Below are positions 6,591 through 35,738 of a stretch of 64,000 bases of DNA, one piece after another. A program made the translations under genes and the position numbers. Source of the DNA: Candidatus Yanofskybacteria bacterium RIFCSPHIGHO2_01_FULL_44_24 (GTDB lineage Bacteria > Patescibacteriota > Minisyncoccia > 2-02-FULL-40-12 > GWA2-44-9); assembly GCA_001794215.1 (NCBI GenBank), contig MGJK01000012.1:4834-68833 (forward strand), read 5' to 3'. The number at the start of each line of letters is the position of its first letter. Position 1 is the stretch's first letter. The notes below the pieces were generated by a model. That model had not been told where the DNA came from, did not search any database, and saw only the letters and a list, made by a program, of their open reading frames with translations.

Positions 6591-6627
6591 CTTGGAAAAA
6601 TGGCAAAATAAGGGTATATTTCTAAGG

Positions 6628-8445
6628 ATGAGCAGGCTTCTTATTATTACCCAAAAAGTAGACATAAACGATGGCGTTTTAGGTTTTTTCCACGAGTGGA
6701 TCAGGAGGTTCGCCGAAAGATTTGATAAGGTCACGGTTATCTGCCTGAAAAAGGGCGAATACAATCTGCCGCCGAATGTTAAGGTCTTATCGCTGGGCAA
6801 GGAGACGTACGGCCATTATCCGGCAGTCGTCAGGCGGGCTTTGTTTTTTAAGAAATTTTATTCTTACATCCGACGGGAGAGAAATAATTACGACGCCGTA
6901 TTCGTACACATGAATCCTAAGTACGTTGTTCTCGGTGCTCCTTTGTGGAAAATTTGGGATAAAAAAATCAGCCTCTGGTATGCTCACGGCCATGTGGGCC
7001 CGACTCTTCAGTTGGCCGACAAGATGACCGATATTGCTTTTACCTCGACTCCGGAGGGCTATAGATTGAAAAGCGACAAGTTAGTCATAGTCGGACAGGG
7101 GATAGATACGGAAAAATTCAAAAATCAAAATTCAAAAATCAAAATTGATGATAGATTCAGGATTATATCCGTCGGGCGTATCACGGCCTCAAAGGATTAT
7201 GGAACGTTGATTCAGGCTTTATCCGTGCTTGGTAAGGATCTGAGAGATAAGCTGGAAGTTTCCATTGTCGGTGATACATGGACGGATAAAGACACTGCTT
7301 ATCTATCTGGATTGAAAGATAGGATAGCCGAGAAAGGATTAAGCGGAACGATAAAATTTTCTGGTCCGATTGCCAACAAAGATTTGCCGGGATTTCTTCA
7401 GTCAGCTGACCTATTCGTAAATATGGGATTGACCGGGAGTTTGGATAAGGCAATTTTGGAAGCGATGGCTTCGGGATTGCCGGTTTTGACCTGTAACGAG
7501 GCTTTGAAAAACGTTCTTGGTCTATATGCGGATAAGCTTATGTATCCGAAGGAGGATTCCGGCAAATTATCGGAAAAAATATCCTTGATGATGAAAATGG
7601 GTGGCCGCGAAAGAGCATCTTTGGGTGCCGGCCTGAGAGATATTGTCATAAGAGATCATAATATTGACGGTCTGATAGGCAAAATATCTAACTCAATCAA
7701 GGGCGTCCCTGCCAATCTAAATGTCGGTGACATTTACAACCGGCAGATAAAGGGTAAATTTGAAGGGAACTATGAGTATCATCGCTGGAAGAGCTCACCG
7801 GTCAAAAGGGCGGGGTATGAAATGACCCGGAGTTTGATTCGGGGTAATATATTGAAAAGCGGTTTGGGTTTCAGGGATTACCTTGAAGTGGGTCCCGGTC
7901 CGGGGACGTGGACGAAGATGTTTTTGGAGGCGAGTCCGAAAGCAAATTTTGATTTAGTGGATATATCCTCCGAAATGCTCAACTTAGCTAAGCAGAATCT
8001 TGCCGGTCATGGCAATTTAAGGTACATAGAGACCGATTTTCTGCGCTTCAATCCCGATAAGAAGTACGACATATTCTTTTCTTCCCGGGCAATTGAGTAT
8101 ATGCCGGATAAGGATGGTTTAGTAAAGAAAATATCCGATCTTTTGAGGCCGGGAGGCAGGGGATTCGTCATCACTAAAAATCCTAAATATTTACGGAGCA
8201 AATTGGCCGGCAGACATATCTCGGAATTTCATAAGGGCCAGATCTCTCCCGAAACATTCAGGGCCTTATTGATTGGAAATGGTTTCAAGGATGTCGAAAT
8301 TTATCCGGTTACTTTTGTTTTTCCCGTTTTCAACTCCGCCTTCATGAACAGGACGGTATCAGGGATCTTTTCTTACCAGAAATTGAATACGTTAAATAAT
8401 TTTTTTGCAGAATCCTATTTAATTAGGTTCAAGAAACCTAATTAA
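6628..8445 (+). CDS. fusion protein: GT4-like glycosyltransferase (N) + class I SAM-dependent methyltransferase (C)
   Basis: N-half has GT-B features (GLTGSLDKAILEAMASGLPVLTCNE). C-half has methyltransferase motif I LEVGPGPGTWTKMF and motif post-I LRPGGRGFVIT. The ORF finder used TTG at 6592; the ATG (MSRLLIITQ) is at 6628. Confidence 0.8.
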   Translation: MSRLLIITQKVDINDGVLGFFHEWIRRFAERFDKVTVICLKKGEYNLPPNVKVLSLGKETYGHYPAVVRRALFFKKFYSYIRRERNNYDAVFVHMNPKYVVLGAPLWKIWDKKISLWYAHGHVGPTLQLADKMTDIAFTSTPEGYRLKSDKLVIVGQGIDTEKFKNQNSKIKIDDRFRIISVGRITASKDYGTLIQALSVLGKDLRDKLEVSIVGDTWTDKDTAYLSGLKDRIAEKGLSGTIKFSGPIANKDLPGFLQSADLFVNMGLTGSLDKAILEAMASGLPVLTCNEALKNVLGLYADKLMYPKEDSGKLSEKISLMMKMGGRERASLGAGLRDIVIRDHNIDGLIGKISNSIKGVPANLNVGDIYNRQIKGKFEGNYEYHRWKSSPVKRAGYEMTRSLIRGNILKSGLGFRDYLEVGPGPGTWTKMFLEASPKANFDLVDISSEMLNLAKQNLAGHGNLRYIETDFLRFNPDKKYDIFFSSRAIEYMPDKDGLVKKISDLLRPGGRGFVITKNPKYLRSKLAGRHISEFHKGQISPETFRALLIGNGFKDVEIYPVTFVFPVFNSAFMNRTVSGIFSYQKLNTLNNFFAESYLIRFKKPN

Positions 8446-11919: not shown

Positions 11920-12621
11920 ATGTTTGTACGCAAAAATAACTGCCGTATTTGCGGAAGCTCTGATCTTGTGAGCGTACTCAATTTAGGCGATCAGCCACCG
12001 GCGAATGCTTTTCTAAAAAGAGAAGACTTTAAAAGCGAAAAGGCATATCCTCTTAATGTTTACTTTTGTAGCGGATGTAATCTTTTGCAACTAAGAGACA
12101 TAGTTTCCCCGGATATTTTATTTCGGGATTATGTTTATGTTTCTTCAACTTCACGCAGTTTTGTTGAGCATTTTGAATCTTATGCGGCGGATGTAGCTAA
12201 AGACTTTGATGTAAAAAACAAATTAGTTATCGATCTGGGAAGTAATGACGGTGTATTATTGAAGCCCTTTAAATCCTTAGGCGCCAAAGTTCTTGGGATT
12301 GATCCGGCAATCGAAATTGCCCGAAAAGCAACCCAAGAGGGAATTGAGACTTTGCCGGAATTTTTTACACCCGACCTCGCTAAAGACATAGTTGCTAAGA
12401 GGGGTAATGCCAAAATAATAAGCGCGAACAATGTCTTCGCTCACATAGACGACGTTAAGGCTGTCTTAGAGGGAGCTGATATCTTATTATCCGGTGACGG
12501 GGTCTTTGTCGCTGAGTTTCCTTACTTAGTCGACTTTATTAATAAAGGCCTGTTTGATACGGTTTACCACGAACACCTTTCTTATTATGGAGTCAGGCAG
12601 TATTTTCCAATCCCTAAATGA
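11920..12621 (+). pseudogene. NDP-sugar C-methyltransferase, N-terminal fragment (disrupted by IS insertion)
   Basis: Zn-ribbon N-term CRICGSSD...CSGCNLLQL and methyltransferase core (VIDLGSNDGVLL). Colinear with the intact 420-aa paralog at 34476 up to ...YHEHLSYY. The stop codon lies inside the IS terminal inverted repeat. Confidence 0.8.
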
Positions 12622-13961
12622 CACCCAAATATCTTATCATATCTTTGCCGAAATTTGTTTAAAAATCTTTAATCTTTCTTCTTGTAATCTCTTAGCTGAC
12701 TCGAAATGGGTCAGCTTTTTTGGTTCTGTTTCTAGTGATTCTCTAGTTATTCCTGGAACAAGATATTCTTGAAGATTTTTTATGGTTAGTAATTTCTGAC
12801 AGGGAGTAAGATATTCTTTGTATTCTTTTTTAATCTTACCTTTTTCATCAATTTGATCCTCAGAAAAAGCGCAATGCCGATGGAAATTAAGATGAGGATT
12901 CAAATATTTTCTCAGGAACTCATTAATCAATATGGCATGTTTCTTTGGTATGTGCGTATAGCCCATAGTCTTTCTGATGACGGCTCCATTCTTACCTTCC
13001 GCTAAAGCATTGTCATTGCTGTGTCTGGCCCTTGATTTAGTCTGACAGATATTCAGTTTGTTTAGAAGATTAGCCACCACCTTGTTAATATATTCCGATC
13101 CGTTATCGGAATGGAAGTTGATGACTTTAAAAGGAATTAGGCTAAGAAGTTCTTCCAAGACTGGAATTAAATGTTGTTCGGATATTGTTTCTACGCAGCC
13201 GACAAATTCCCATTGGCTTATCTCATCTACGATATTAATGTAGTATACTCCCTTTTCCTTGTCTAAATCACCTTGGTGAACCGAATCTATCCTCAGATAA
13301 CCCGGTTTACCTTGATTATCGGGTTTTCTCCTCTCTCCGATAGGAATAGCCGTTTTCTTGGTTTTAGTGTAAACCAGGACCCGACTGGTATATATCTTCG
13401 TCTTTCTGAGATTGTAGATATGGCTTTTGGATATGTGGCTTAATTTCTCAAACTTATCATCGCCATAAATCTGATACATATCCTCAAGACATTTCTTGAG
13501 AGCATAGCCATTAGGATTTTCAAAGGCTGAAGCCACGTCAGCCAGCAACCTAATATCGGGAACTTCATAAAAGGTCTGAAAGGCATTTTGAGTCCTTTCT
13601 TTTACAAAAACTTGGCCGGTATCTTTCTTCCTTTTGATTAATCGATCAACCTGGCTATCAGAATATCCGCTTACAGATTTAATATATTCTTTGATAACCG
13701 CTTTATTCTTTTTCGTCTCGGAAGAATATCTAAACTTTCCGAGTGTTTGTCCGATCCACTCGTAAGTCTTGGCCTTACCGGCAGTTCTCTTAAATTCAGC
13801 ACATTGCGAAAGTTTTACAAACTCTCTAAGCTGTGCCAGGCTTGTTACTGACTCGTCGTTCATATCCATAGTCATATATCGGCATGATACGACGAGCCAT
13901 TCACTTAAGGGAGCTTTCGGCTCCTTTCTGTGTTGGAATGACCCTTGATTTGGGTGTCATT
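12617..13961 (-). mobile_element. insertion sequence (single DDE transposase ORF) inserted into C-methyltransferase gene
   Basis: Perfect 14-bp terminal inverted repeats AATGACACCCAAAT at 12617-12630 and 13948-13961 (reverse complement). Total 1345 bp with one 412-aa rve-type transposase. No clear target-site duplication is visible. Confidence 0.8.
12637..13875 (-). CDS. DDE-type transposase / integrase-core (rve) family
   Basis: Catalytic triad context RIDSVHQGD ... FHSDNGSEY ... NDNALAEGKN (D, D, E) with an N-terminal HTH-like region. Occupies nearly the whole IS. Confidence 0.8.
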   Translation of the reverse strand: MTMDMNDESVTSLAQLREFVKLSQCAEFKRTAGKAKTYEWIGQTLGKFRYSSETKKNKAVIKEYIKSVSGYSDSQVDRLIKRKKDTGQVFVKERTQNAFQTFYEVPDIRLLADVASAFENPNGYALKKCLEDMYQIYGDDKFEKLSHISKSHIYNLRKTKIYTSRVLVYTKTKKTAIPIGERRKPDNQGKPGYLRIDSVHQGDLDKEKGVYYINIVDEISQWEFVGCVETISEQHLIPVLEELLSLIPFKVINFHSDNGSEYINKVVANLLNKLNICQTKSRARHSNDNALAEGKNGAVIRKTMGYTHIPKKHAILINEFLRKYLNPHLNFHRHCAFSEDQIDEKGKIKKEYKEYLTPCQKLLTIKNLQEYLVPGITRESLETEPKKLTHFESAKRLQEERLKIFKQISAKI

Positions 13962-14532
13962 GTGCGTTGGACAAGACTGGCCCTTGAAAGTGCTATTTGA
14001 TAATTGTAGGATGAGAATGTTTGACGTCCAAAGGGTAAACTCCCATGGCGGTTCGTTGAGGATTTTCGTATGTAGGCAGGATGCCGCTTATCCTACCAGA
14101 TCTTCTGTCGATGAGCTGGATAACCTCGAAAGGAGTCTAAGGCTTGATTCAGTCGAGACGTATATCAATTTCGAAAAAAGAGTTAATGAAAATCGACTTA
14201 AGCTTCAGGGCCTTCTTCGCGGGTTGAAAAAAGATGGCCATAAAATAGCTGCCTACGGAGCGCCTGCCAAGGGGAATACGCTTTTGAATTATATGGAAAT
14301 CGGAACCGACTTGTTGGAATATGTTGTCGACGATAGTCCCTATAAGCAAGGGTTATATACGCCGGGAATGCATATTCCGGTTGTAAGTTCTCAAAGCTTG
14401 GAGAATAATCGACCCGACTATTTGTTTATTTTAGCCTGGAATTTCGCGGAACAAATTATGGTTAAGTGCTCGGATTTTAGAAACAAGGGAGGAAGGTTTA
14501 TATTACCCGTGCCTGAGCCAAAGATTATATGA
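13945..14532 (+). pseudogene. NDP-sugar C-methyltransferase, C-terminal fragment
   Basis: From ~13975 (PLKVLFDNCRMRMFDV...GGSLRIFV) it aligns with LTKLFPYYGMEVFDA...EGSIRVYV of the intact paralog. Carries the C-methyltransferase C-terminal domain (KIAAYGAPAKGNTLL...DYLFILAWNF). The first codons of the ORF overlap the IS inverted repeat. Confidence 0.75.
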
Positions 14533-15599
14533 AACACCCCATCGTACAGGAGGACATAGACGTCATAGTTTCGGCCATAAAAAAAGAGGCAAAACAGCTT
14601 GAAGGGAAAAGGATTTTAATTACCGGAGGAACCGGTTTTTTGGGTAACTACTTTCTCTCGGTCTTTTACGATTTAAATAAAAAAGTGTTAAAAACCCCCT
14701 GCAAAGTTATAGTCATCGATAACTATATTACGGGGGACAAGAAAAATATACTTGGATTAGAAAAGAGTTCTCACTTTAAGTTCATAGAACATGATGTCCG
14801 GGTTCCTATAAAAGTTTCCGGGAATATCGATTATATAATTCATGCTGCCGGGATAGCTTCCCCGGTTTATTATATGAAATATCCTTTGGAGACTATCGAA
14901 GTTGCCACCAAGGGAACGCAAAATATGCTTGAATTGGCCCGCTTGAAAAAGGTTAAGAGCTTTTTGTTTTTCAGTTCAAGCGAGATATATGGTGATCCTC
15001 ACAAGGACCATATACCTACCCCTGAAAGTTACCGAGGCCATGTTTCTTCGACGGGTCCGAGATCTTGCTATGATGAATCAAAAAGACTGGGTGAAACTCT
15101 ATGTATGACCTATAGTAAAATTTATGGTGTACCGGTCAAAATAGTCAGACCGTTTAATGTTTATGGTCCCGGCATGAAGCCTAACGACGATAGGGTTCTG
15201 CCTAAGTTTTTAAGCCATGCATGTATGGGGAAATCACTGCCCATACATGGCAAGGGACTTCAAACCAGAACGTACTGCTACATAACCGATGCCACGGTCG
15301 GATTTTTGAAGGTATTGTTATCGAAGGGAAGCGGAGAGGTGTATAATATAGGGAACAATGAAGGAGAGATTAATCTCGTTGACTTAGCCAATGTTGTCAG
15401 CGGACTTTTTGATAACAAAGTATCGGTAGTCAAAATTGATTATCCCTCTGCCTATCCGGCAGATGAGCCTAATCGAAGATGCCCCAGTATAACTAAAGCA
15501 AAAGCAAATCTTGGATTTGAGCCCCAAATGGAATTAAAAGACGGAGTAAGTCGGCTTTTGCAATGGTATAAAGAAACTTATCCCAATCTCAAGGCTTAA
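14529..15599 (+). CDS. NAD(P)-dependent nucleotide-sugar epimerase/dehydratase (extended SDR; probable NDP-4-keto-6-deoxyhexose reductase/decarboxylase-like)
   Basis: ILITGGTGFLGNY Rossmann motif, YxxxK context (SEIYGD...YDESKRLGE) and overall UXS/RmlB-like length. Confidence 0.75.
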   Translation: MKHPIVQEDIDVIVSAIKKEAKQLEGKRILITGGTGFLGNYFLSVFYDLNKKVLKTPCKVIVIDNYITGDKKNILGLEKSSHFKFIEHDVRVPIKVSGNIDYIIHAAGIASPVYYMKYPLETIEVATKGTQNMLELARLKKVKSFLFFSSSEIYGDPHKDHIPTPESYRGHVSSTGPRSCYDESKRLGETLCMTYSKIYGVPVKIVRPFNVYGPGMKPNDDRVLPKFLSHACMGKSLPIHGKGLQTRTYCYITDATVGFLKVLLSKGSGEVYNIGNNEGEINLVDLANVVSGLFDNKVSVVKIDYPSAYPADEPNRRCPSITKAKANLGFEPQMELKDGVSRLLQWYKETYPNLKA

Positions 15600-15601
15600 A
15601 T

Positions 15602-16456
15602 ATGAAAGTCCTTATTATCGGAGCGGATGGTCAGTTGGGTAGCGATCTCTTAAAAATATTCAAATCTTCCCAAAACGAGGTTGCCGGTCTTTCTCGCGGA
15701 GATGTTGATATTAGTCGATCGGCCGATGCGGAGTCTGCTATAAAAAAAATAAAGCCGCAGATAGTTATAAACTGCGCCGCCATAGTTGATACCGAAAGAA
15801 ACGAGCTCTTTCCCGAAGAGGCTTTTTTGGTCAATTCATTGGGAGCTTTTTACGTCGCAAAAGCCGCTCAGACTATCGGAGCCACCGTCGTTTATATAAG
15901 TACTGACTATGTTTTTGACGGATTAAAGAAATACTTTACGGAAAAAGATACTCCAAACCCACTCAATGTCTATGGCTCTTCCAAGTTAGCCGGTGAATAT
16001 CTTACAAAAATAGCGAATCCTAAAAACTATATAATCAGGACAAGCGCTTTGTTCGGAAAGGGCAAGGGGCCGAAGGGAAATTTCGTTTCAAGGTTATTAG
16101 ATAAGGCAAGGTCAGGAATGGAGATCAAGATGGTTAACGATCAATTCACCTCGCCCACGTACACCGTAGACTTAGCAAAGACTATCCAGAAAATAATTAG
16201 GAAAAAATTACCGTATGGCGTATATCATATAACCAACCAGGGCAGTGCTTCTTGGTACGGATTTGGTAAAGAGATAATAAAGTTAATGAAAATTAATTCT
16301 AAGATTGTAGGGATAAAAACTGACATGTCGTCCAGCGGGATCAAGAGGCCCATGTATAGTGTCCTAATAAATCACAATCTCAATCAAAAGAAAATTAGTC
16401 TACCTTCTTGGCAAAATTCTCTCGCAAGGTACCTCAAAGAGGAGGATCTCATATAG
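15602..16456 (+). CDS. dTDP-4-dehydrorhamnose reductase (RmlD)-like NDP-sugar reductase
   Basis: MKVLIIGADGQLGSDL...VINCAAIVDTE...STDYVFDG is the classical RmlD/RfbD pattern. Confidence 0.75.
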   Translation: MKVLIIGADGQLGSDLLKIFKSSQNEVAGLSRGDVDISRSADAESAIKKIKPQIVINCAAIVDTERNELFPEEAFLVNSLGAFYVAKAAQTIGATVVYISTDYVFDGLKKYFTEKDTPNPLNVYGSSKLAGEYLTKIANPKNYIIRTSALFGKGKGPKGNFVSRLLDKARSGMEIKMVNDQFTSPTYTVDLAKTIQKIIRKKLPYGVYHITNQGSASWYGFGKEIIKLMKINSKIVGIKTDMSSSGIKRPMYSVLINHNLNQKKISLPSWQNSLARYLKEEDLI

Positions 16457-16529: not shown

Positions 16530-17561
16530 ATGAGGATAAATTTTCTATTACCGCATCTTAAACCGGCCGGGGGAGTCAGTGTTTCTCTTACCTTTGGCCA
16601 CAAATTAGCCGAACGAGGCCATGACGTGATTGCTGCAATTGAAAACAGCAGTTTTTTATCGCGTCTTTATAGGAATTTTTTCAACGATCACCCGTTACTA
16701 CCCCGGGGATCAAAGTTGCGATTGAAGATGGTCAGAAGTTTTAAGGATCTTCCCGACGCAGATGTCTGGATGGCTGATTCCTGGAAGTCTGCCAAAAAAT
16801 TATATAACCTGAAAACAAAGGCGGTTAAATTTCAATATATTCAGCATGACGAAAGGATGTATCACGGCGACCCCAAGGTCGTAGAAGAAGTTTTTCGTCT
16901 GCCGCTGATTAAATTTGTAAATGCAACCTGGCTTCAGAGGATGCTGAAAAGAGACTTCAATTACGAGGCCGAAGTCATGTTTAATTCAGTTGATTGCGAT
17001 CTTTTCAATCCAAACAAAAGAGACAGAAGACCGGACGACGGATTGATTAAGATACTATTGCTTCATCATGATTATGGATGGAAGAATTCGAAGGAGGGAG
17101 CCCAGATAGTTATGGAGCTGAAAGAGAAATATCCCAATGTGAGATTGGTTTTATTCGGAACAAGGGCCAAGAATATAGATTTACCGCACGATGAGTACCA
17201 TTTTAATGTCTTTGGAGAGGACTTAGCCCGCCTTTTTGCCAATTCGGATATCTTTCTCGGGGCTTCGATAGATGATAGCCGACCCCTGCCCCATAGATGG
17301 GCGATGGCTTCCGGGTGCGCTTTAGCAACGTATGACAATGTAAGCTCCGATGACTATGCATTTAACGGCGAGAATTCATTAGTGGCCGAAAAGGGGAATC
17401 GGGAGGATTTAAAAAATAAAGTCGAAGAATTGATCCGAGACTCGGAGTTAAGAAGACAAGTTATCCAAAGTGCGCTTGTATTTGTAAGAAAGCTGCCGAC
17501 ATGGGATGAGATGACCGATAAATTAGAGAATATATTTAAAAAAGGACTAAATCAAACATGA
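16530..17561 (+). CDS. glycosyltransferase (GT-B, GT4-like)
   Basis: N-term LLPHLKPAGGVSVSLTFGHKLAERGHDV and C-term GT-B-like region (LVLFGTRAKN...ASGCALATYDN). Confidence 0.55.
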   Translation: MRINFLLPHLKPAGGVSVSLTFGHKLAERGHDVIAAIENSSFLSRLYRNFFNDHPLLPRGSKLRLKMVRSFKDLPDADVWMADSWKSAKKLYNLKTKAVKFQYIQHDERMYHGDPKVVEEVFRLPLIKFVNATWLQRMLKRDFNYEAEVMFNSVDCDLFNPNKRDRRPDDGLIKILLLHHDYGWKNSKEGAQIVMELKEKYPNVRLVLFGTRAKNIDLPHDEYHFNVFGEDLARLFANSDIFLGASIDDSRPLPHRWAMASGCALATYDNVSSDDYAFNGENSLVAEKGNREDLKNKVEELIRDSELRRQVIQSALVFVRKLPTWDEMTDKLENIFKKGLNQT

Positions 17562-18172
17562 TACTGATTACCGGCAGTACTGGCTTCATTGGTTCTCGAC
17601 TGGTCTCATTTCTTTCTCAGAAAGGATACGAGATCAAAGAGGTAAATGAGGAAATAACCGATATCGAAAAATTAAGACCCCATTTTAAGGGCGCAGATTT
17701 TGTTGTGCATTTGGCGGGCAAGAAACCCAACAGTGAAACTGTCGGAAAATCCAACGATACATTTCTGGTTAATGTCTTGGGGACCATGAATGTGGTGAGG
17801 CTGTGCTTAGAAAACAAGTCGAAGCTGATTAATATAAGCTCAAGTGCCACTGAATCGGAGTACGGCATAAGCAAAGTGGTCGCCGAAGAACTGGTCAGAT
17901 CTTATGCCAAGTCTCAGGGCCTAAAGGCAATTACCATACGTCCTGCCGGTATTTATGATGAAAACGATAAAACCGTTCCGTATATAAATAAGAACTATCC
18001 CCTCGGCCATTTAGTCCGTGATATCGAATGGATAATAAAAAATCACAACTTTGATCAGTATAAGGTTTATGAAACCCGAAATTTTCAGCAAAAAATTTAC
18101 TTCATTCGAAGAAAAATCAACGCGGTAAAAAGAAGAGTGAATAAACTATCGTCATGGCTAAGGTTTCAGTAA
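17558..18172 (+). CDS. short NAD-dependent epimerase/dehydratase family protein
   Basis: MILITGSTGFIGSRLVSFL Rossmann motif and ...ISKVVAEELV (YxxxK-like). Only 204 aa, so the C-terminal substrate domain is reduced. Confidence 0.6.
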   Translation: MILITGSTGFIGSRLVSFLSQKGYEIKEVNEEITDIEKLRPHFKGADFVVHLAGKKPNSETVGKSNDTFLVNVLGTMNVVRLCLENKSKLINISSSATESEYGISKVVAEELVRSYAKSQGLKAITIRPAGIYDENDKTVPYINKNYPLGHLVRDIEWIIKNHNFDQYKVYETRNFQQKIYFIRRKINAVKRRVNKLSSWLRFQ

Positions 18173-20993: not shown

Positions 20994-21098
20994 AGGTTGA
21001 GGTTGTTATATCCTCAAATTGTGGTACCATATGGCCTGAATGGTGTCCTTTTACAATAAGGAGCGGAGTTGCTGATCAAAAAGAAACGCAACATCTAT

Positions 21099-23027
21099 AT
21101 GTCTCAGGTTAATTATCGATATGGAGATAACGCATTTTTACCATACTCAGTGGCCGTGCTACAGGCTTATGCTCAGGCTGAAAGCGAAATAAGAAATAGT
21201 TTTACATTCAAAGAGCTCATATTCCTTAGAGAGGATCCGGATCAGGTTGCTCGCAGAATGGAGAGCCCGTCTATATTAGCCCTCTCGTGCTATATGTGGA
21301 ATTGGGAATGGCAGAAACTGTTAGCCCAAGCAGTAAAAGCTTATTACCCCGACTGCTTAGTTATTATGGGCGGGATTCATATTCCGGAAAAATCTGATGG
21401 GTTTTTTCGAGAGTATCCCTATGTGGATCTGATTATCCACGGAGAGGGCGAGGTAACCTTTACCGCCGTTCTTCTTGCTTTTCTTTCCGGTGGAGGGTTC
21501 GAGTCCATGCCGGGAGTTAGTATCAGAAGGCCTGACAATTCGACCCTTAAAACATCTCTGCCGAATCGTATAAGCGATTTATCTAAATTGCCGTCACCTT
21601 ATTTGACCGGAGTCTTTGACTCGATTATAGATTTGCCGTTTCTCTGGAATGCCAGCCAAGAAACAAATCGTGGTTGTCCGTATCCATGCACCTTCTGTGC
21701 CTGGGGTCCGGCATATCAGCAAAAAGTTTGGCAGTTTAGCGAAGACCGAATAATTGAAGAATTAGAATGGTTCGGCCGGCATAGGATCGAATATATCTTC
21801 AATTGCGACGCCAATTGGGGAATTTTTGAAAGAGATTTGGAATTGACGCGAAAAATGGCTGAAATTAAAGCCAGATACCAAGGATATCCCAAGAAATTCA
21901 GGATGTGTACTGCTAAAAACAGCAATGATCGGGTTTTCGATATCAGCAGAATTCTTGATCGGGCCGGAATGAACAAGGGAGCGACGCTCAGTTTTCAAAG
22001 TATGAATGATACGGTCTTAGAGGCTGTTAAGCGCAGGAATATTAAGATCAAAGATTTTACCTCATACATGCGCCAGTATCGCGAGGCCAAGATAGCCACA
22101 TATACCGAGTTGATCATGGGATTGCCATGTGAGACATATACAACCTTCAAAGAGGGAATTGATAAGCTTATAAATGCCGGACAGCATAACGGTTTGAATA
22201 ACTATGTTTGCCTGATGCTTCCAAATGATGAGATGAGTGATCCGGATTATGTCCGTAAGCATCGGTTGGGGTGGGTGAAGATGCCTATTCTTCTTGCCCA
22301 CAGTACTCCAGGGTCGGATCCGGTCCAAGAGTATCAGGACGTTGTTGTCTCGACTAACTCCATGCCCGTAGAGGATTGGGAAAGAATTTTTATTTTCTCT
22401 TGGGCAGTGCAGTCATTTCACTGTCTCGGCCTGACTCAAACCATGGCTCTATTCTTAAGGAAACAATTTGGTGTTCAGTACAGTGTTTTTTACGAAAAGT
22501 TAATTGATTACTTTTCAAGTCGTCCTGAAACCCTTTTGGGTCAACAGCTTGTAAGAGTGTCCGATATAGTTTCCGGATCGATTCAGGGCGGAAGATTAGA
22601 TATGGTTATGCCTAAATTTGGCGAGATCTACTGGCCGCTAGAAGAGGCAGCTTTCCTCAATTGTGTTACTGACAAGGAAACATTCTATCGGGAATTGGCT
22701 GGGTTTGTAGATGATCTTTTAGGTCAATCCGGACGATCTGTCGATCGGACTTTACTGAGCAATCTCCTTTCTTATCAGAGGGCTCTTGTCGTGGATCCTT
22801 ATTCAGATGGCGAGTTTAGCGTTAATTTAGAATATGATCTTCATGACTACTTTGCCAAGGCTTACTTAGACGAAGAAGGCAAGCTGGCCTTAGCATCTAA
22901 TCGACTGGTCGTAAAACCATCAGTAGTTTTTAAAGGAGATTTAGTTTCTTATGCCCGAGAGATTGTCTGGTATGGTCGCAAGGGCGGTAAATTCTATCAT
23001 TCGGATGTTGAGGTCGCTCGCTTATAG
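21099..23027 (+). CDS. B12-binding domain radical SAM protein (class B radical SAM)
   Basis: Radical SAM cysteine motif NRGCPYPCTFCAWG (CxxxCxxC) preceded by an N-terminal cobalamin-binding-like domain (DCLVIMGGIHIP). The ORF finder used TTG at 21069; the ATG (MSQVNYRYG) is at 21099. Confidence 0.75.
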   Translation: MSQVNYRYGDNAFLPYSVAVLQAYAQAESEIRNSFTFKELIFLREDPDQVARRMESPSILALSCYMWNWEWQKLLAQAVKAYYPDCLVIMGGIHIPEKSDGFFREYPYVDLIIHGEGEVTFTAVLLAFLSGGGFESMPGVSIRRPDNSTLKTSLPNRISDLSKLPSPYLTGVFDSIIDLPFLWNASQETNRGCPYPCTFCAWGPAYQQKVWQFSEDRIIEELEWFGRHRIEYIFNCDANWGIFERDLELTRKMAEIKARYQGYPKKFRMCTAKNSNDRVFDISRILDRAGMNKGATLSFQSMNDTVLEAVKRRNIKIKDFTSYMRQYREAKIATYTELIMGLPCETYTTFKEGIDKLINAGQHNGLNNYVCLMLPNDEMSDPDYVRKHRLGWVKMPILLAHSTPGSDPVQEYQDVVVSTNSMPVEDWERIFIFSWAVQSFHCLGLTQTMALFLRKQFGVQYSVFYEKLIDYFSSRPETLLGQQLVRVSDIVSGSIQGGRLDMVMPKFGEIYWPLEEAAFLNCVTDKETFYRELAGFVDDLLGQSGRSVDRTLLSNLLSYQRALVVDPYSDGEFSVNLEYDLHDYFAKAYLDEEGKLALASNRLVVKPSVVFKGDLVSYAREIVWYGRKGGKFYHSDVEVARL

Positions 23028-34475: not shown

Positions 34476-35738
34476 ATGAAAATACCCAATCATGATGCGC
34501 CAATCGGCAGGATGGACCGATGTCAGATATGCGGCTCGGCCAACCTTTTTGAGGGTATAGATTTAGGCCATCAACCTCCCTGCGATGCTCTTTTAACAAA
34601 TAAAACGATCAACGAGCCGGAGATTTATTATCCTTTGCGCCTAATGATATGTTCCGACTGTGGACTCGGTCAGCTTGACCATGTCGTGGACGGGAAAATC
34701 ATTTATCCCGCCGACTATCCTTATAGGGCCGGAATTTCAAAGCCTTTACGGGATTATCTGCTGACTTATGCCGATGATGTGGTTACGCGGTTGAATGTTC
34801 CGCAGAAGGCCCTATGCGTTGATATAGGCTGTAATGACGGGACATTGCTCACCGGATTTCGGTCCCATGGCATGCGTACGCTTGGCGTTGAGCCGACAGA
34901 TATGGCCAAATACGCCCGGAAAGAAAACAAAATCACAACTTTGCAGGAGTTTTTCACTGAAGGCGTTGCCCGACAAGCAGTTAAAGAATACGGGAAAGCT
35001 AAGGTGGCAACAATGACCAATGTTTTTGCTCATATGGCTCCGTTGGGTAAAGTGATGCGCGGTATCGACAGACTACTGGATAAAGACGGAATGTTTGTTA
35101 CCGAGAGCCAGTATCTTCTTGATGTCTTGGATCGCAATCAGTTCGACCAGGTTTATCATGAGCATATCAGGTTATATAGCCTGAAGTCGCTGACCAAGCT
35201 GTTCCCGTATTATGGAATGGAAGTTTTCGATGCCGAGAAGCTCTCTTCCCGCGAAGGAAGCATCCGTGTTTATGTGGCGCGTAAAGGTGTGCGTCCGGTC
35301 AGTTCGAGGGTGGGCAACCTGCTTGCTCTTGAAGAAAGTCGGGGGCTGTTTGTGCCAGCGGTCTGGGCTCAGTTCCGGGCTCGGGTTAGTGAATGTCGTG
35401 AAAGATTTCTCGATTTAGCCTATAAGGCCAAGAACCAGGGGTTGAGATTTGTTGCCGATTCTTGTCCCGGACGCGGTGCGGTCTTGGTTAATTATTACGG
35501 TTTAGATAAAACCCTGATGCCATACATAGCTCAGCTTCCGGAGTCAGAAAAGGTTGGAAGGTATCTTCCCGGCACCCATATTCCTATCGTGGCTAACGGC
35601 ATTATTCTAAAAGAGAAGCCGGACTATGTGGTCATTCTCGCATGGCATTACGCCGATTTCATCATGAAGAATTGGCGAGCCAAGGGCCTGAAGTCGAAGT
35701 TTGTTATTCCGCTTCCGGATCCGAGGGTTATAAGTTAA
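34476..35738 (+). CDS. NDP-sugar C-methyltransferase (Zn-ribbon + class I MTase + C-methyltransferase C-terminal domain), intact
   Basis: CQICGSAN...CSDCGLGQL zinc ribbon, VDIGCNDGTLL motif I and the C-terminal domain (GRGAVLVNYYG...DYVVILAWHYADFIM). Good SD gggagg 9 nt upstream. Visibly higher G+C than its neighbours. Confidence 0.8.
   Translation: MKIPNHDAPIGRMDRCQICGSANLFEGIDLGHQPPCDALLTNKTINEPEIYYPLRLMICSDCGLGQLDHVVDGKIIYPADYPYRAGISKPLRDYLLTYADDVVTRLNVPQKALCVDIGCNDGTLLTGFRSHGMRTLGVEPTDMAKYARKENKITTLQEFFTEGVARQAVKEYGKAKVATMTNVFAHMAPLGKVMRGIDRLLDKDGMFVTESQYLLDVLDRNQFDQVYHEHIRLYSLKSLTKLFPYYGMEVFDAEKLSSREGSIRVYVARKGVRPVSSRVGNLLALEESRGLFVPAVWAQFRARVSECRERFLDLAYKAKNQGLRFVADSCPGRGAVLVNYYGLDKTLMPYIAQLPESEKVGRYLPGTHIPIVANGIILKEKPDYVVILAWHYADFIMKNWRAKGLKSKFVIPLPDPRVIS

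Follow-up and report, generated by a model that had tools for sequence, protein, structure and literature searches.

How a sugar methyltransferase gene came to be cut in two, and what led the intruding element to that particular spot, is the question raised by positions 11920–14532 of a 64,000-nucleotide stretch of DNA (hereafter the window; contig MGJK01000012.1, positions 4,834 to 68,833 of the forward strand, assembly GCA_001794215.1) from Candidatus Yanofskybacteria bacterium RIFCSPHIGHO2_01_FULL_44_24. The original prediction, made from the letters and their translations, described an interrupted C-methyltransferase gene and a probably recent, still-mobile insertion sequence (IS) of 1,345 bp. 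We consider it very probable that a somewhat longer IS, of 1,380 bp, split a 3-C-methyltransferase gene, that this IS belongs to a promoter-targeting family whose transposase-proximal inverted repeat (IRL) is placed 5 bp upstream of a −35 hexamer, and that the window copy conforms to this rule.

The locus contains three open reading frames (ORFs) of 233 aa (11920–12621, + strand), 412 aa (12637–13875, − strand) and 195 aa (13945–14532, + strand). The 412-aa ORF encodes the transposase and is the sole long ORF in the element, the others listed being 50–72 aa on the opposite strand. The complete IS occupies 12599–13978 (− strand) with tips 5'-AGT...ACT-3', its ends being placed where similarity to three other copies, on contigs L002, L003 and L004, stops. 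Similarity to L003 (88%) and L004 (84%) reaches 12599; that to L004 stops at 13978, and the L003 tip also falls at 13978 by alignment of ends. L002 agrees with the window between 16875 and exactly 12598, past which its flank is unrelated, and its right-side junction is 100% identical. When L002:4279–5253 (ERZ27254745 k141_1850662) was aligned to window positions 12598–13697, the flank and first 280 bp of the IS were identical and all 109 mismatches lay within 12698–13697. L002 is an assembly chimera that switches inside the IS, its far flank coming from an unrelated locus. The sample must therefore also contain another copy of the IS, ~92% identical, and this fixes the left tip. The transposase-distal inverted repeat (IRR; 32 nt, AGTATTTTCCAATCCCTAAATGACACCCAAAT, 12599–12630, − strand) and IRL (31 nt, AGTCTTGTCCAACGCACAATGACACCCAAAT on the − strand, 13948–13978) are imperfect, matching in 26 of 32 columns. 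The IS is flanked by a target-site duplication, GGC, whose left copy (12596–12598) is repeated past the other tip (13979–13981).

Removal of the IS together with one copy of GGC (12599–13981, 1,383 bp) restored a 1,230-nt ORF encoding 409 aa. The reconstructed empty site reads ...GGAGTCAGGCCCTTGAAAG..., with junction codons ...GTC AGG CCC TTG..., and the restored junction (...HEHLSYYGVR-P-LKVLFDN...) was gapless against ten homologues, P227 (codon CCC at 13981–13983) falling on the consensus 'PL'. The N-terminal fragment (11920–12598, + strand) holds native residues 1–226, with Methyltransf_13 (Zn-binding; 80 bits) and S-adenosylmethionine (SAM)-methyltransferase (36.5 bits) domains, and the C-terminal fragment (13982–14532, + strand) holds native residues 227–409, with a Methyltransf_14 domain (199 bits). 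The 233-aa ORF therefore comprises 226 native residues plus 7 that are IS-encoded, ending at a TGA (12619–12621), while the 195-aa ORF opens at a TTG start inside the IS and has 183 native residues. Much of the original prediction was borne out by these data. This included the assignment of the two fragments as halves of one C-methyltransferase, colinear with the intact, distant 420-aa paralog at 34476–35738 (+ strand): residues 4–226 of the N-fragment aligned to paralog residues 12–237 (40% identity, E 5e−55) and residues 14–195 of the C-fragment to 239–419 (34% identity, E 6e−32). It also included the interruption of the gene by an apparently intact element bearing an opposite-strand rve/DDE transposase, upheld by the ORFs, the rve match and the catalytic triad (described below), and the origin of the premature stop, the TGA lying inside the IRR arm.

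The restored gene is predicted to encode an NDP-hexose 3-C-methyltransferase of the TylC3/TcaB9 type. A trial 412-aa join aligned end-to-end (residues 7–412) with the D-mycarose 3-C-methyltransferase in PDB entry 4rv9 (E 6e−100), and also matched TcaB9 (3ndi, E 6e−79) and 5t64 (E 1e−74). The junction used in that trial, ...GVRQ+DWPLKVLF..., was rejected, as it left three surplus residues that formed the sole junction gap versus 4rv9, whereas the duplication-based junction is gapless. These enzymes share with the restored protein the domain trio Methyltransf_13/SAM-methyltransferase/Methyltransf_14 and full-length colinearity; the difference is that the gene here is split in two, and the split enzyme is almost certainly inactive. 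If so, the C-methyl-deoxyhexose branch of the surrounding glycan cluster would lose one step in this genome, whose host is probably a candidate-phyla-radiation bacterium. An IS-split gene is in itself ordinary: the locus is a case of routine pseudogenisation, and should be annotated as one interrupted gene rather than two methyltransferase genes.

The choice of site is less ordinary, and became apparent from the flanks of related copies. The family was found in genome contigs with an alignment-based query, a single-sequence query having given no match. A strict regular expression and a catalytic-motif anchor missed many loci and alignment of inverted repeats often mis-set the tips; a position weight matrix (PWM) pair search, trained on AG-starting tips, was used instead and recovered both ends in 130 loci. 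Copies were oriented by the transposase gene and the IRL side was read outward, giving 113 flanks in which no pair was ≥60% identical. No signal was observed at flank positions 1–5, which correspond to the duplication. Positions 6–11 (T95 T67 G85 A52 C54 A52, n = 113) spelt TTGACA, and positions 29–34 (T64 A73 t35 A49 A52 T74, n = 113) spelt TATAAT, with a 17-bp spacer between the two. The most frequent start of TAnnnT was position 29 (50 flanks), followed by positions 30 (16 flanks) and 28 (14 flanks), against a background of ~3 per position; overall, 76–80 of the 113 flanks had a start at 28–30. Both hexamers matched at ≥4/6 in 41.6% of IRL flanks, compared to 0.9% of IRR flanks and 0.5% of 49,472 control windows. 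The promoter signal appeared beside IRL alone, and there only on the outward strand. Outward ORFs (≥100 aa) starting 30–300 nt from the tip were likewise more frequent beside IRL (54/72) than beside IRR (30/70; P = 1.5e−4). With TTGACA beginning at base 6 and TATAAT following at a 17-bp spacer, the IRL tip sits at about −41 of what is, by its motifs, a sigma-70-type promoter, and the transposase gene is divergent from that promoter. Position 5 was C in 42% of flanks family-wide and there are hints of extra base preferences in the duplicated pentamer. In three copies from unrelated hosts, represented by zetaproteobacterial, Methylococcales and Mariprofundaceae metagenome-assembled genomes (MAGs; L023, L081 and L029, respectively), the 10 bp beside IRL were near-identical (GTCAATAGAT or CTCAATAGAG) and the flanks diverged further out.

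The window copy obeys this rule in both position and orientation. On the + strand past the IRL tip at 13978, GGCCC is followed by TTGAAA (13984–13989), 17 nt and TAGGAT (14007–14012), the two hexamers matching consensus at 5/6 and 4/6, respectively. This promoter-like motif (TTGAAA-N17-TAGGAT, 13984–14012, + strand) begins at the sixth base from the tip and faces outward, toward the C-fragment and the genes that follow it. A consensus scanner listed the same site independently. Only 0.1% of window positions and orientations scored as high in that geometry, and in the reconstructed methyltransferase gene 3 of 2,340 positions did, the IS lying at one of the three. We propose that the IS transposed into the NDP-hexose 3-C-methyltransferase gene at 12599–13978, duplicating GGC and separating the Zn/SAM-binding half from the C-terminal domain. 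In keeping with the family's preference for sigma-70-type promoters, IRL would have landed 5 bp upstream of a −35-like hexamer, at ~−41. The 3-bp duplication would then reflect an IRR joint made 2 bp short of the usual stagger, the IRL joint being at the canonical distance. A terminator-like hairpin (12694–12716) plus T-run, spanning 12694–12726 on the + strand, lies ~100 nt inside the IS and is a consensus match only. More speculatively, it would stop transcripts entering from the N-fragment; if either feature is functional, expression of the downstream short-chain dehydrogenase/reductase (SDR) and rmlD genes would rely on the promoter-like site, which may keep them transcribed.

The simplest reading of the flanks is that the promoter is recognised as a unit, most plausibly through the RNA polymerase holoenzyme or a DNA bend or distortion at the upstream edge. 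The same flanks could also be produced by sequence mimicry and survivorship, whereby the DNA-binding domain reads the motif of its own inverted repeats (TTGTCCAAT) and also captures TTGACA-like targets, the −10 enrichment arising since only harmless intergenic insertions upstream of real promoters persist. TTG is indeed the sharpest signal (84% T at position 6), the inverted repeats contain TGTCCAA, like the TGTCAA that is the reverse complement of TTGACA, and clean insertion sites are mostly intergenic (33/43). Several IS families, e.g. IS30 and IS911, also target sequences resembling their inverted repeats. However, TTG-reading plus survivorship fails to reproduce the −10 data. IS-adjacent sites without TTG still had a correctly spaced TAnnnT in 37/61 cases. 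At sites with a poor −35 (0–2 matches to TTGACA), a −10 of ≥5/6 occurred in 29% versus 1.7% of controls (P = 3e−5), and 58% of weak −35 sites carried an extended −10 TG compared to 6.6%. Conversely, a correctly spaced −10 accompanied 39/52 IS-adjacent TTG sites and only 8/210 control TTG sites (P = 2e−27), the controls being intergenic, 30–300 nt upstream of ORFs and from the same loci. Ten genic-like insertions, including that in the window, also kept more −10 matches than controls (mean 3.8 versus 2.4). We therefore consider mimicry with survivorship unlikely. Returning to recognition of the promoter as a unit, a more specific version, in which the transpososome is recruited to promoters occupied by the sigma-70 holoenzyme (via sigma region 4, the alpha C-terminal domain or a DNA bend) and integrates at ~−41 in one orientation, is offered tentatively, its chances being somewhat below even.

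The remaining alternatives concern the window copy itself. The original prediction had the element bounded by perfect 14-bp repeats (12617 and 13961), giving 1,345 bp and no target duplication, and took this perfection as a sign of recency. The perfect 14-nt inverted pair (AATGACACCCAAAT) is present at the claimed positions, 12617–12630 and 13948–13961, with no further exact copy in the window. However, similarity to three other copies runs 17–18 bp past each 14-mer, which in relatives forms the conserved inner block of the inverted repeats and not the tip. Excision of the shorter version also leaves the frame broken, with 38 bases too many, whereas the 1,383-bp excision repairs it, making boundaries at the 14-mers extremely improbable. 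No more credible is an assembly artefact in which a repeat was mis-joined into the methyltransferase gene. Its appeal is that L002 is visibly chimeric inside this IS and that mismatched flanks are frequent among the family's metagenome contigs. Yet L001, an independent assembly of the locus, is 100% identical over 4,312 bp (16875–12564) and shares both junctions, the right one recurring in L002; the insertion is bracketed by a direct repeat whose removal gives a gapless ORF, and its site obeys the family target rule.

A better-placed alternative, though still somewhat unlikely, is an old insertion that has become fixed, with a copy no longer able to move whose intact look stems from selection on its transposase or from slow decay. 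Among 5.8 billion protein clusters no empty-site allele came to light, the best intact homologue there being 61% identical; the closest intact homologues span 53–61% identity and those with a source name are candidate-phyla-radiation MAG proteins. Ten contigs carry an identical transposase, the neighbourhood being displayed for one, at this locus. The 3-bp duplication is atypical, and the further copies of the IS that had been proposed as a check were not found within the window by tblastn, blastn or 14-mer search. Against great age, neither methyltransferase half has acquired stops or frameshifts and every family-invariant column is kept, including C8, C11, C50 and C53; on this basis the insertion is plausibly recent on the time-scale of gene decay. 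The transposase is full length (412 aa versus 403–412 aa in most relatives) with its catalytic triad, and the element is thus plausibly active. The earlier argument for recency therefore stands with respect to the transposase and falls with respect to perfect repeats, as the true repeats are imperfect; both fit the family consensus and their differences are typical of it. Furthermore, variants of 84–93% identity coexist in related samples, which indicates a living lineage. Were the element to move by copy-out-paste-in, we propose that the circle intermediate would carry the IRR–IRL junction ...AAAATACT-N(3–5)-AGTCTTG....

Several observations weigh against the overall account of a promoter-targeting family to which the window copy conforms. 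About a third of the flanks have no clear promoter. The IS ends in the survey were called with a self-built PWM, and the 'genic' and 'intergenic' labels derive from mechanical ORFs. The duplication was an exact 5 bp in 35 of 59 genome copies and 4 bp in 3, the window copy being the sole 3-bp case. No duplication was present in 35 of 58 metagenome or viral copies (loci L086–L168), many of these contigs having chimeric flanks. The window's promoter-like site is weak, and consensus matches are common in AT-rich DNA, with 15 in 3 kb versus 7.6 in shuffles. Nothing shows current mobility, with neither a second identical copy in the window nor an empty site found. Finally, polymerase recruitment is an inference only, with no transposition or transcript observed.

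In a literature search that did not extend to most subscription journals, neither an account of this family nor any bacterial IS or transposon reported to direct its insertion to promoters or −35 boxes was found, and the novelty of promoters as an IS target choice is accordingly provisional. The search, which also covered ISLbi1 and ISNCY, yielded only the IS1202/dif papers. The protein-bound or guided sites to which DDE transposons have so far been seen to home are attTn7, dif/pdif, res and CRISPR-guided sites; promoters would join this short list of protein-bound sites if our account is correct. The account would also explain how the IS could spread so widely with genes rarely broken. Copies of the family would pinpoint sigma-70 promoters to the base pair in Patescibacteria, Proteobacteria, Elusimicrobia, Acidobacteriota and other phyla, providing a free, sequence-only promoter marker for uncultured lineages, and would suggest a compact, one-protein system for promoter-proximal DNA insertion. 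If the recruitment proposal also holds, the window copy would mark a functional internal promoter in the methyltransferase gene that still drives SDR and rmlD. It would further represent a bacterial counterpart of Ty3 and Ty1, eukaryotic long terminal repeat retroelements that target RNA polymerase III genes, tethered by TFIIIB or RNA polymerase III subunits. The resemblance to Ty3/Ty1 integrases is one of fold and logic only: the tether there is known, whereas promoter targeting here is read from flanking motifs. A match to the Ty1 integrase (7z0h, E 0.034) was rejected as evidence for a tether, as it reflects core-domain similarity only.

The transposase (12637–13875, − strand) matched no curated IS model well. 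The Pfam rve score (31.9 bits) fell just below its cut-off (32.6), and the best NCBIfam matches were IS481 (NF033577; 50.5 bits versus a cut-off of 224) and IS3 (NF033516; 38.5 bits versus 160). No ISNCY or other IS family model in NCBIfam matched, even at E ≤ 10. As no curated model captures the family, annotation pipelines call it 'integrase' or 'hypothetical protein'. D197, D257 and E293 were invariant in 54 homologues; position E293+7 is I300, and the next residue, R301, is invariant. An AlphaFold model (mean pLDDT 76) predicts an integrase fold, consisting of an N-terminal helical/helix-turn-helix (HTH) region, an RNase H-fold DDE core, a small beta-barrel and C-terminal helices. Among named transposases, the nearest relative was that of ISLbi1 (Leptospira biflexa p74, WP_012476869.1; ISNCY), with an hhalign probability of 98.8% (E 6e−17, 319 columns, 24% identity) and a tblastn E of 2e−8. 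Both are single-ORF rve/DDE elements of ~1.4–1.5 kb, with transposases homologous over the N-terminal region, core and beta-barrel and the same weak, sub-threshold NCBIfam matches to IS481 and IS3. The terminal repeat of ISLbi1 (ATCTACTCGAAA) also resembles family tips such as AGTCTACTCCAAC. In contrast, its transposase has 442 aa compared to 403–412 aa here, and identity is only 24%. In the one ISLbi1 copy, whose tip is uncertain, neither a clear adjoining promoter nor a duplication could be defined. ISNCY stands for 'not classified yet' and has no defining family criteria; its ISLbi1-like part is a poorly defined group, to which the IS described here adds a new member.

The most similar behaviour is that of the IS1202 family, and specifically its ISAba32/ISAjo2 subgroup, in which IRL lies 5 bp from the XerC side of dif/pdif sites in fixed orientation with a 5-bp duplication (PMC10132070; bioRxiv 10.1101/2022.12.17.520857). 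Our family shares this spacing, fixed orientation and duplication length, as well as a size of ~1.4–1.7 kb, imperfect inverted repeats of ~25–30 bp with conserved tip and inner blocks, and the succession of HTH domains, RNase H core, beta-barrel and C-terminal domain. IS1202 elements are defined by TGT...ACA tips and by a Q at the seventh position beyond the catalytic E (PMC10132070; bioRxiv 10.1101/2022.12.17.520857), whereas the tips here are AGT...ACT and E293 is followed by I300 and R301 in place of Q. The targets also differ, being the XerC side of dif/pdif there and promoters here. Membership of IS1202 was rejected on these three grounds: tips, Q signature and target. Targeting of dif/Xer sites was rejected too, as the flanks lack a dif-like 28-mer and the motif resolves into −35 and −10 hexamers. 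IS481 and IS3 share the rve-type DD(35)E core, and IS481 elements also resemble this one in having a single ORF. To our knowledge, neither IS481 nor IS3 is known to target promoters. Both were rejected by the scores given above and because the tips here are not TGT/TG, IS481 specifically by its TGT...ACA tips and IS3 also by its frameshifted two-ORF layout, the transposase here being a single continuous ORF.

The family is represented by at least 7,987 clusters at 90% identity, most of them on contigs the size of an IS (1.3–2 kb), and by 497 clusters at 50% identity (E ≤ 1e−30), with at least 594 matches in genomes and at least 588 in metagenomes. Hosts include Saccharibacteria, Paceibacterota, Doudnabacteria, Minisyncoccus, Gamma- and Zetaproteobacteria, Elusimicrobia and Acidobacteriota, and some genomes are multi-copy (5 copies in Methylococcales CBDCZY01, at least 3 in Gammaproteobacteria CBDALO01). 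Cultivable carriers include Paraglaciecola sp. MB-3u-78, Mariprofundus sp. KV and Minisyncoccus archaeiphilus. Elements are 1,357–1,704 bp long (median near 1,400), with AGT...ACT tips in the window copy and in relatives whose ends were shown, and two-block inverted repeats. Two records carry archaeal labels: P0048 (60% identity) is assigned in NCBI to a MAG named 'Candidatus Hodarchaeales archaeon', and L012 to one of Methanosarcinales. These represent either binning contamination or presence in archaea, the latter of which would be odd for an element targeting sigma-70 promoters. The closest isolate copy among the matches listed was on a plasmid of Polaromonas sp. P1-6 (CP087967.1; L005:908–2813), with 43% identity and the annotation 'integrase'. 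It directly follows a short gene for a 166-aa 'TniQ family protein' and has a 5-bp duplication (GTGTG) and the flank TGGGCA-N17-TATGAT. Its reconstructed empty site falls in a 609-codon open frame, and the copy may thus interrupt a gene. In L003:1419–1493 (ERZ4903072 k141_3301055), the IS end of another subfamily (AGTATTTTCCAATCCAGGAATGATACTGAAAT) starts 7 bp past the IRR tip, reflecting either a tail-to-tail arrangement of two family members or an artefact of assembly. A small hairpin (GGGAGCTTTCGGCTCC) at window positions 13903–13928 separates IRL from the ATG of the transposase gene, within its 5' leader, and recurs with slightly varied sequence in L003 and L004 (GGGAGCTTTCAGCTCC; GGGAGCCTTTCGGCTCC). 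It may serve in translational or read-through control. The GC content of the IS (38.1%) is lower than that of the window (41.8%) and its 10-kb surroundings (40.5%), which fits horizontal arrival, though the difference is small.

The methyltransferase gene lies within a co-directional array of ~22 kb (~1205 to 23027) that encodes GT4 and GT2 glycosyltransferases (GTs), a fused GT-methyltransferase and a B12-radical-SAM methyltransferase. It had been called the first gene of its operon, which is not established, a 760-aa glycosyltransferase gene ending 34 bp before its start. The SDR and RmlD-like genes said to remain downstream are both intact (14529–16456, + strand). The former (14529–15599) encodes a 356-aa SDR of generic dehydratase/epimerase type, and the latter (15602–16456) encodes RmlD, a dTDP-4-dehydrorhamnose reductase (277.8 bits versus a curated cut-off of 224). 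No Rfam match to RNA elements was found in the window. The fused protein (6592–8445) is of GT4-methyltransferase type, and the B12-binding radical-SAM C-methyltransferase (21069–23027) is related to KedN5 (285 bits, under its cut-off). The glycan of this cluster is probably heavily methylated. A 204-aa ORF at 17558–18172 matched positions 1–176 of the 240-position Epimerase profile, with the alignment ending at residue 136, and may be a truncated or degenerate SDR gene of the same cluster.

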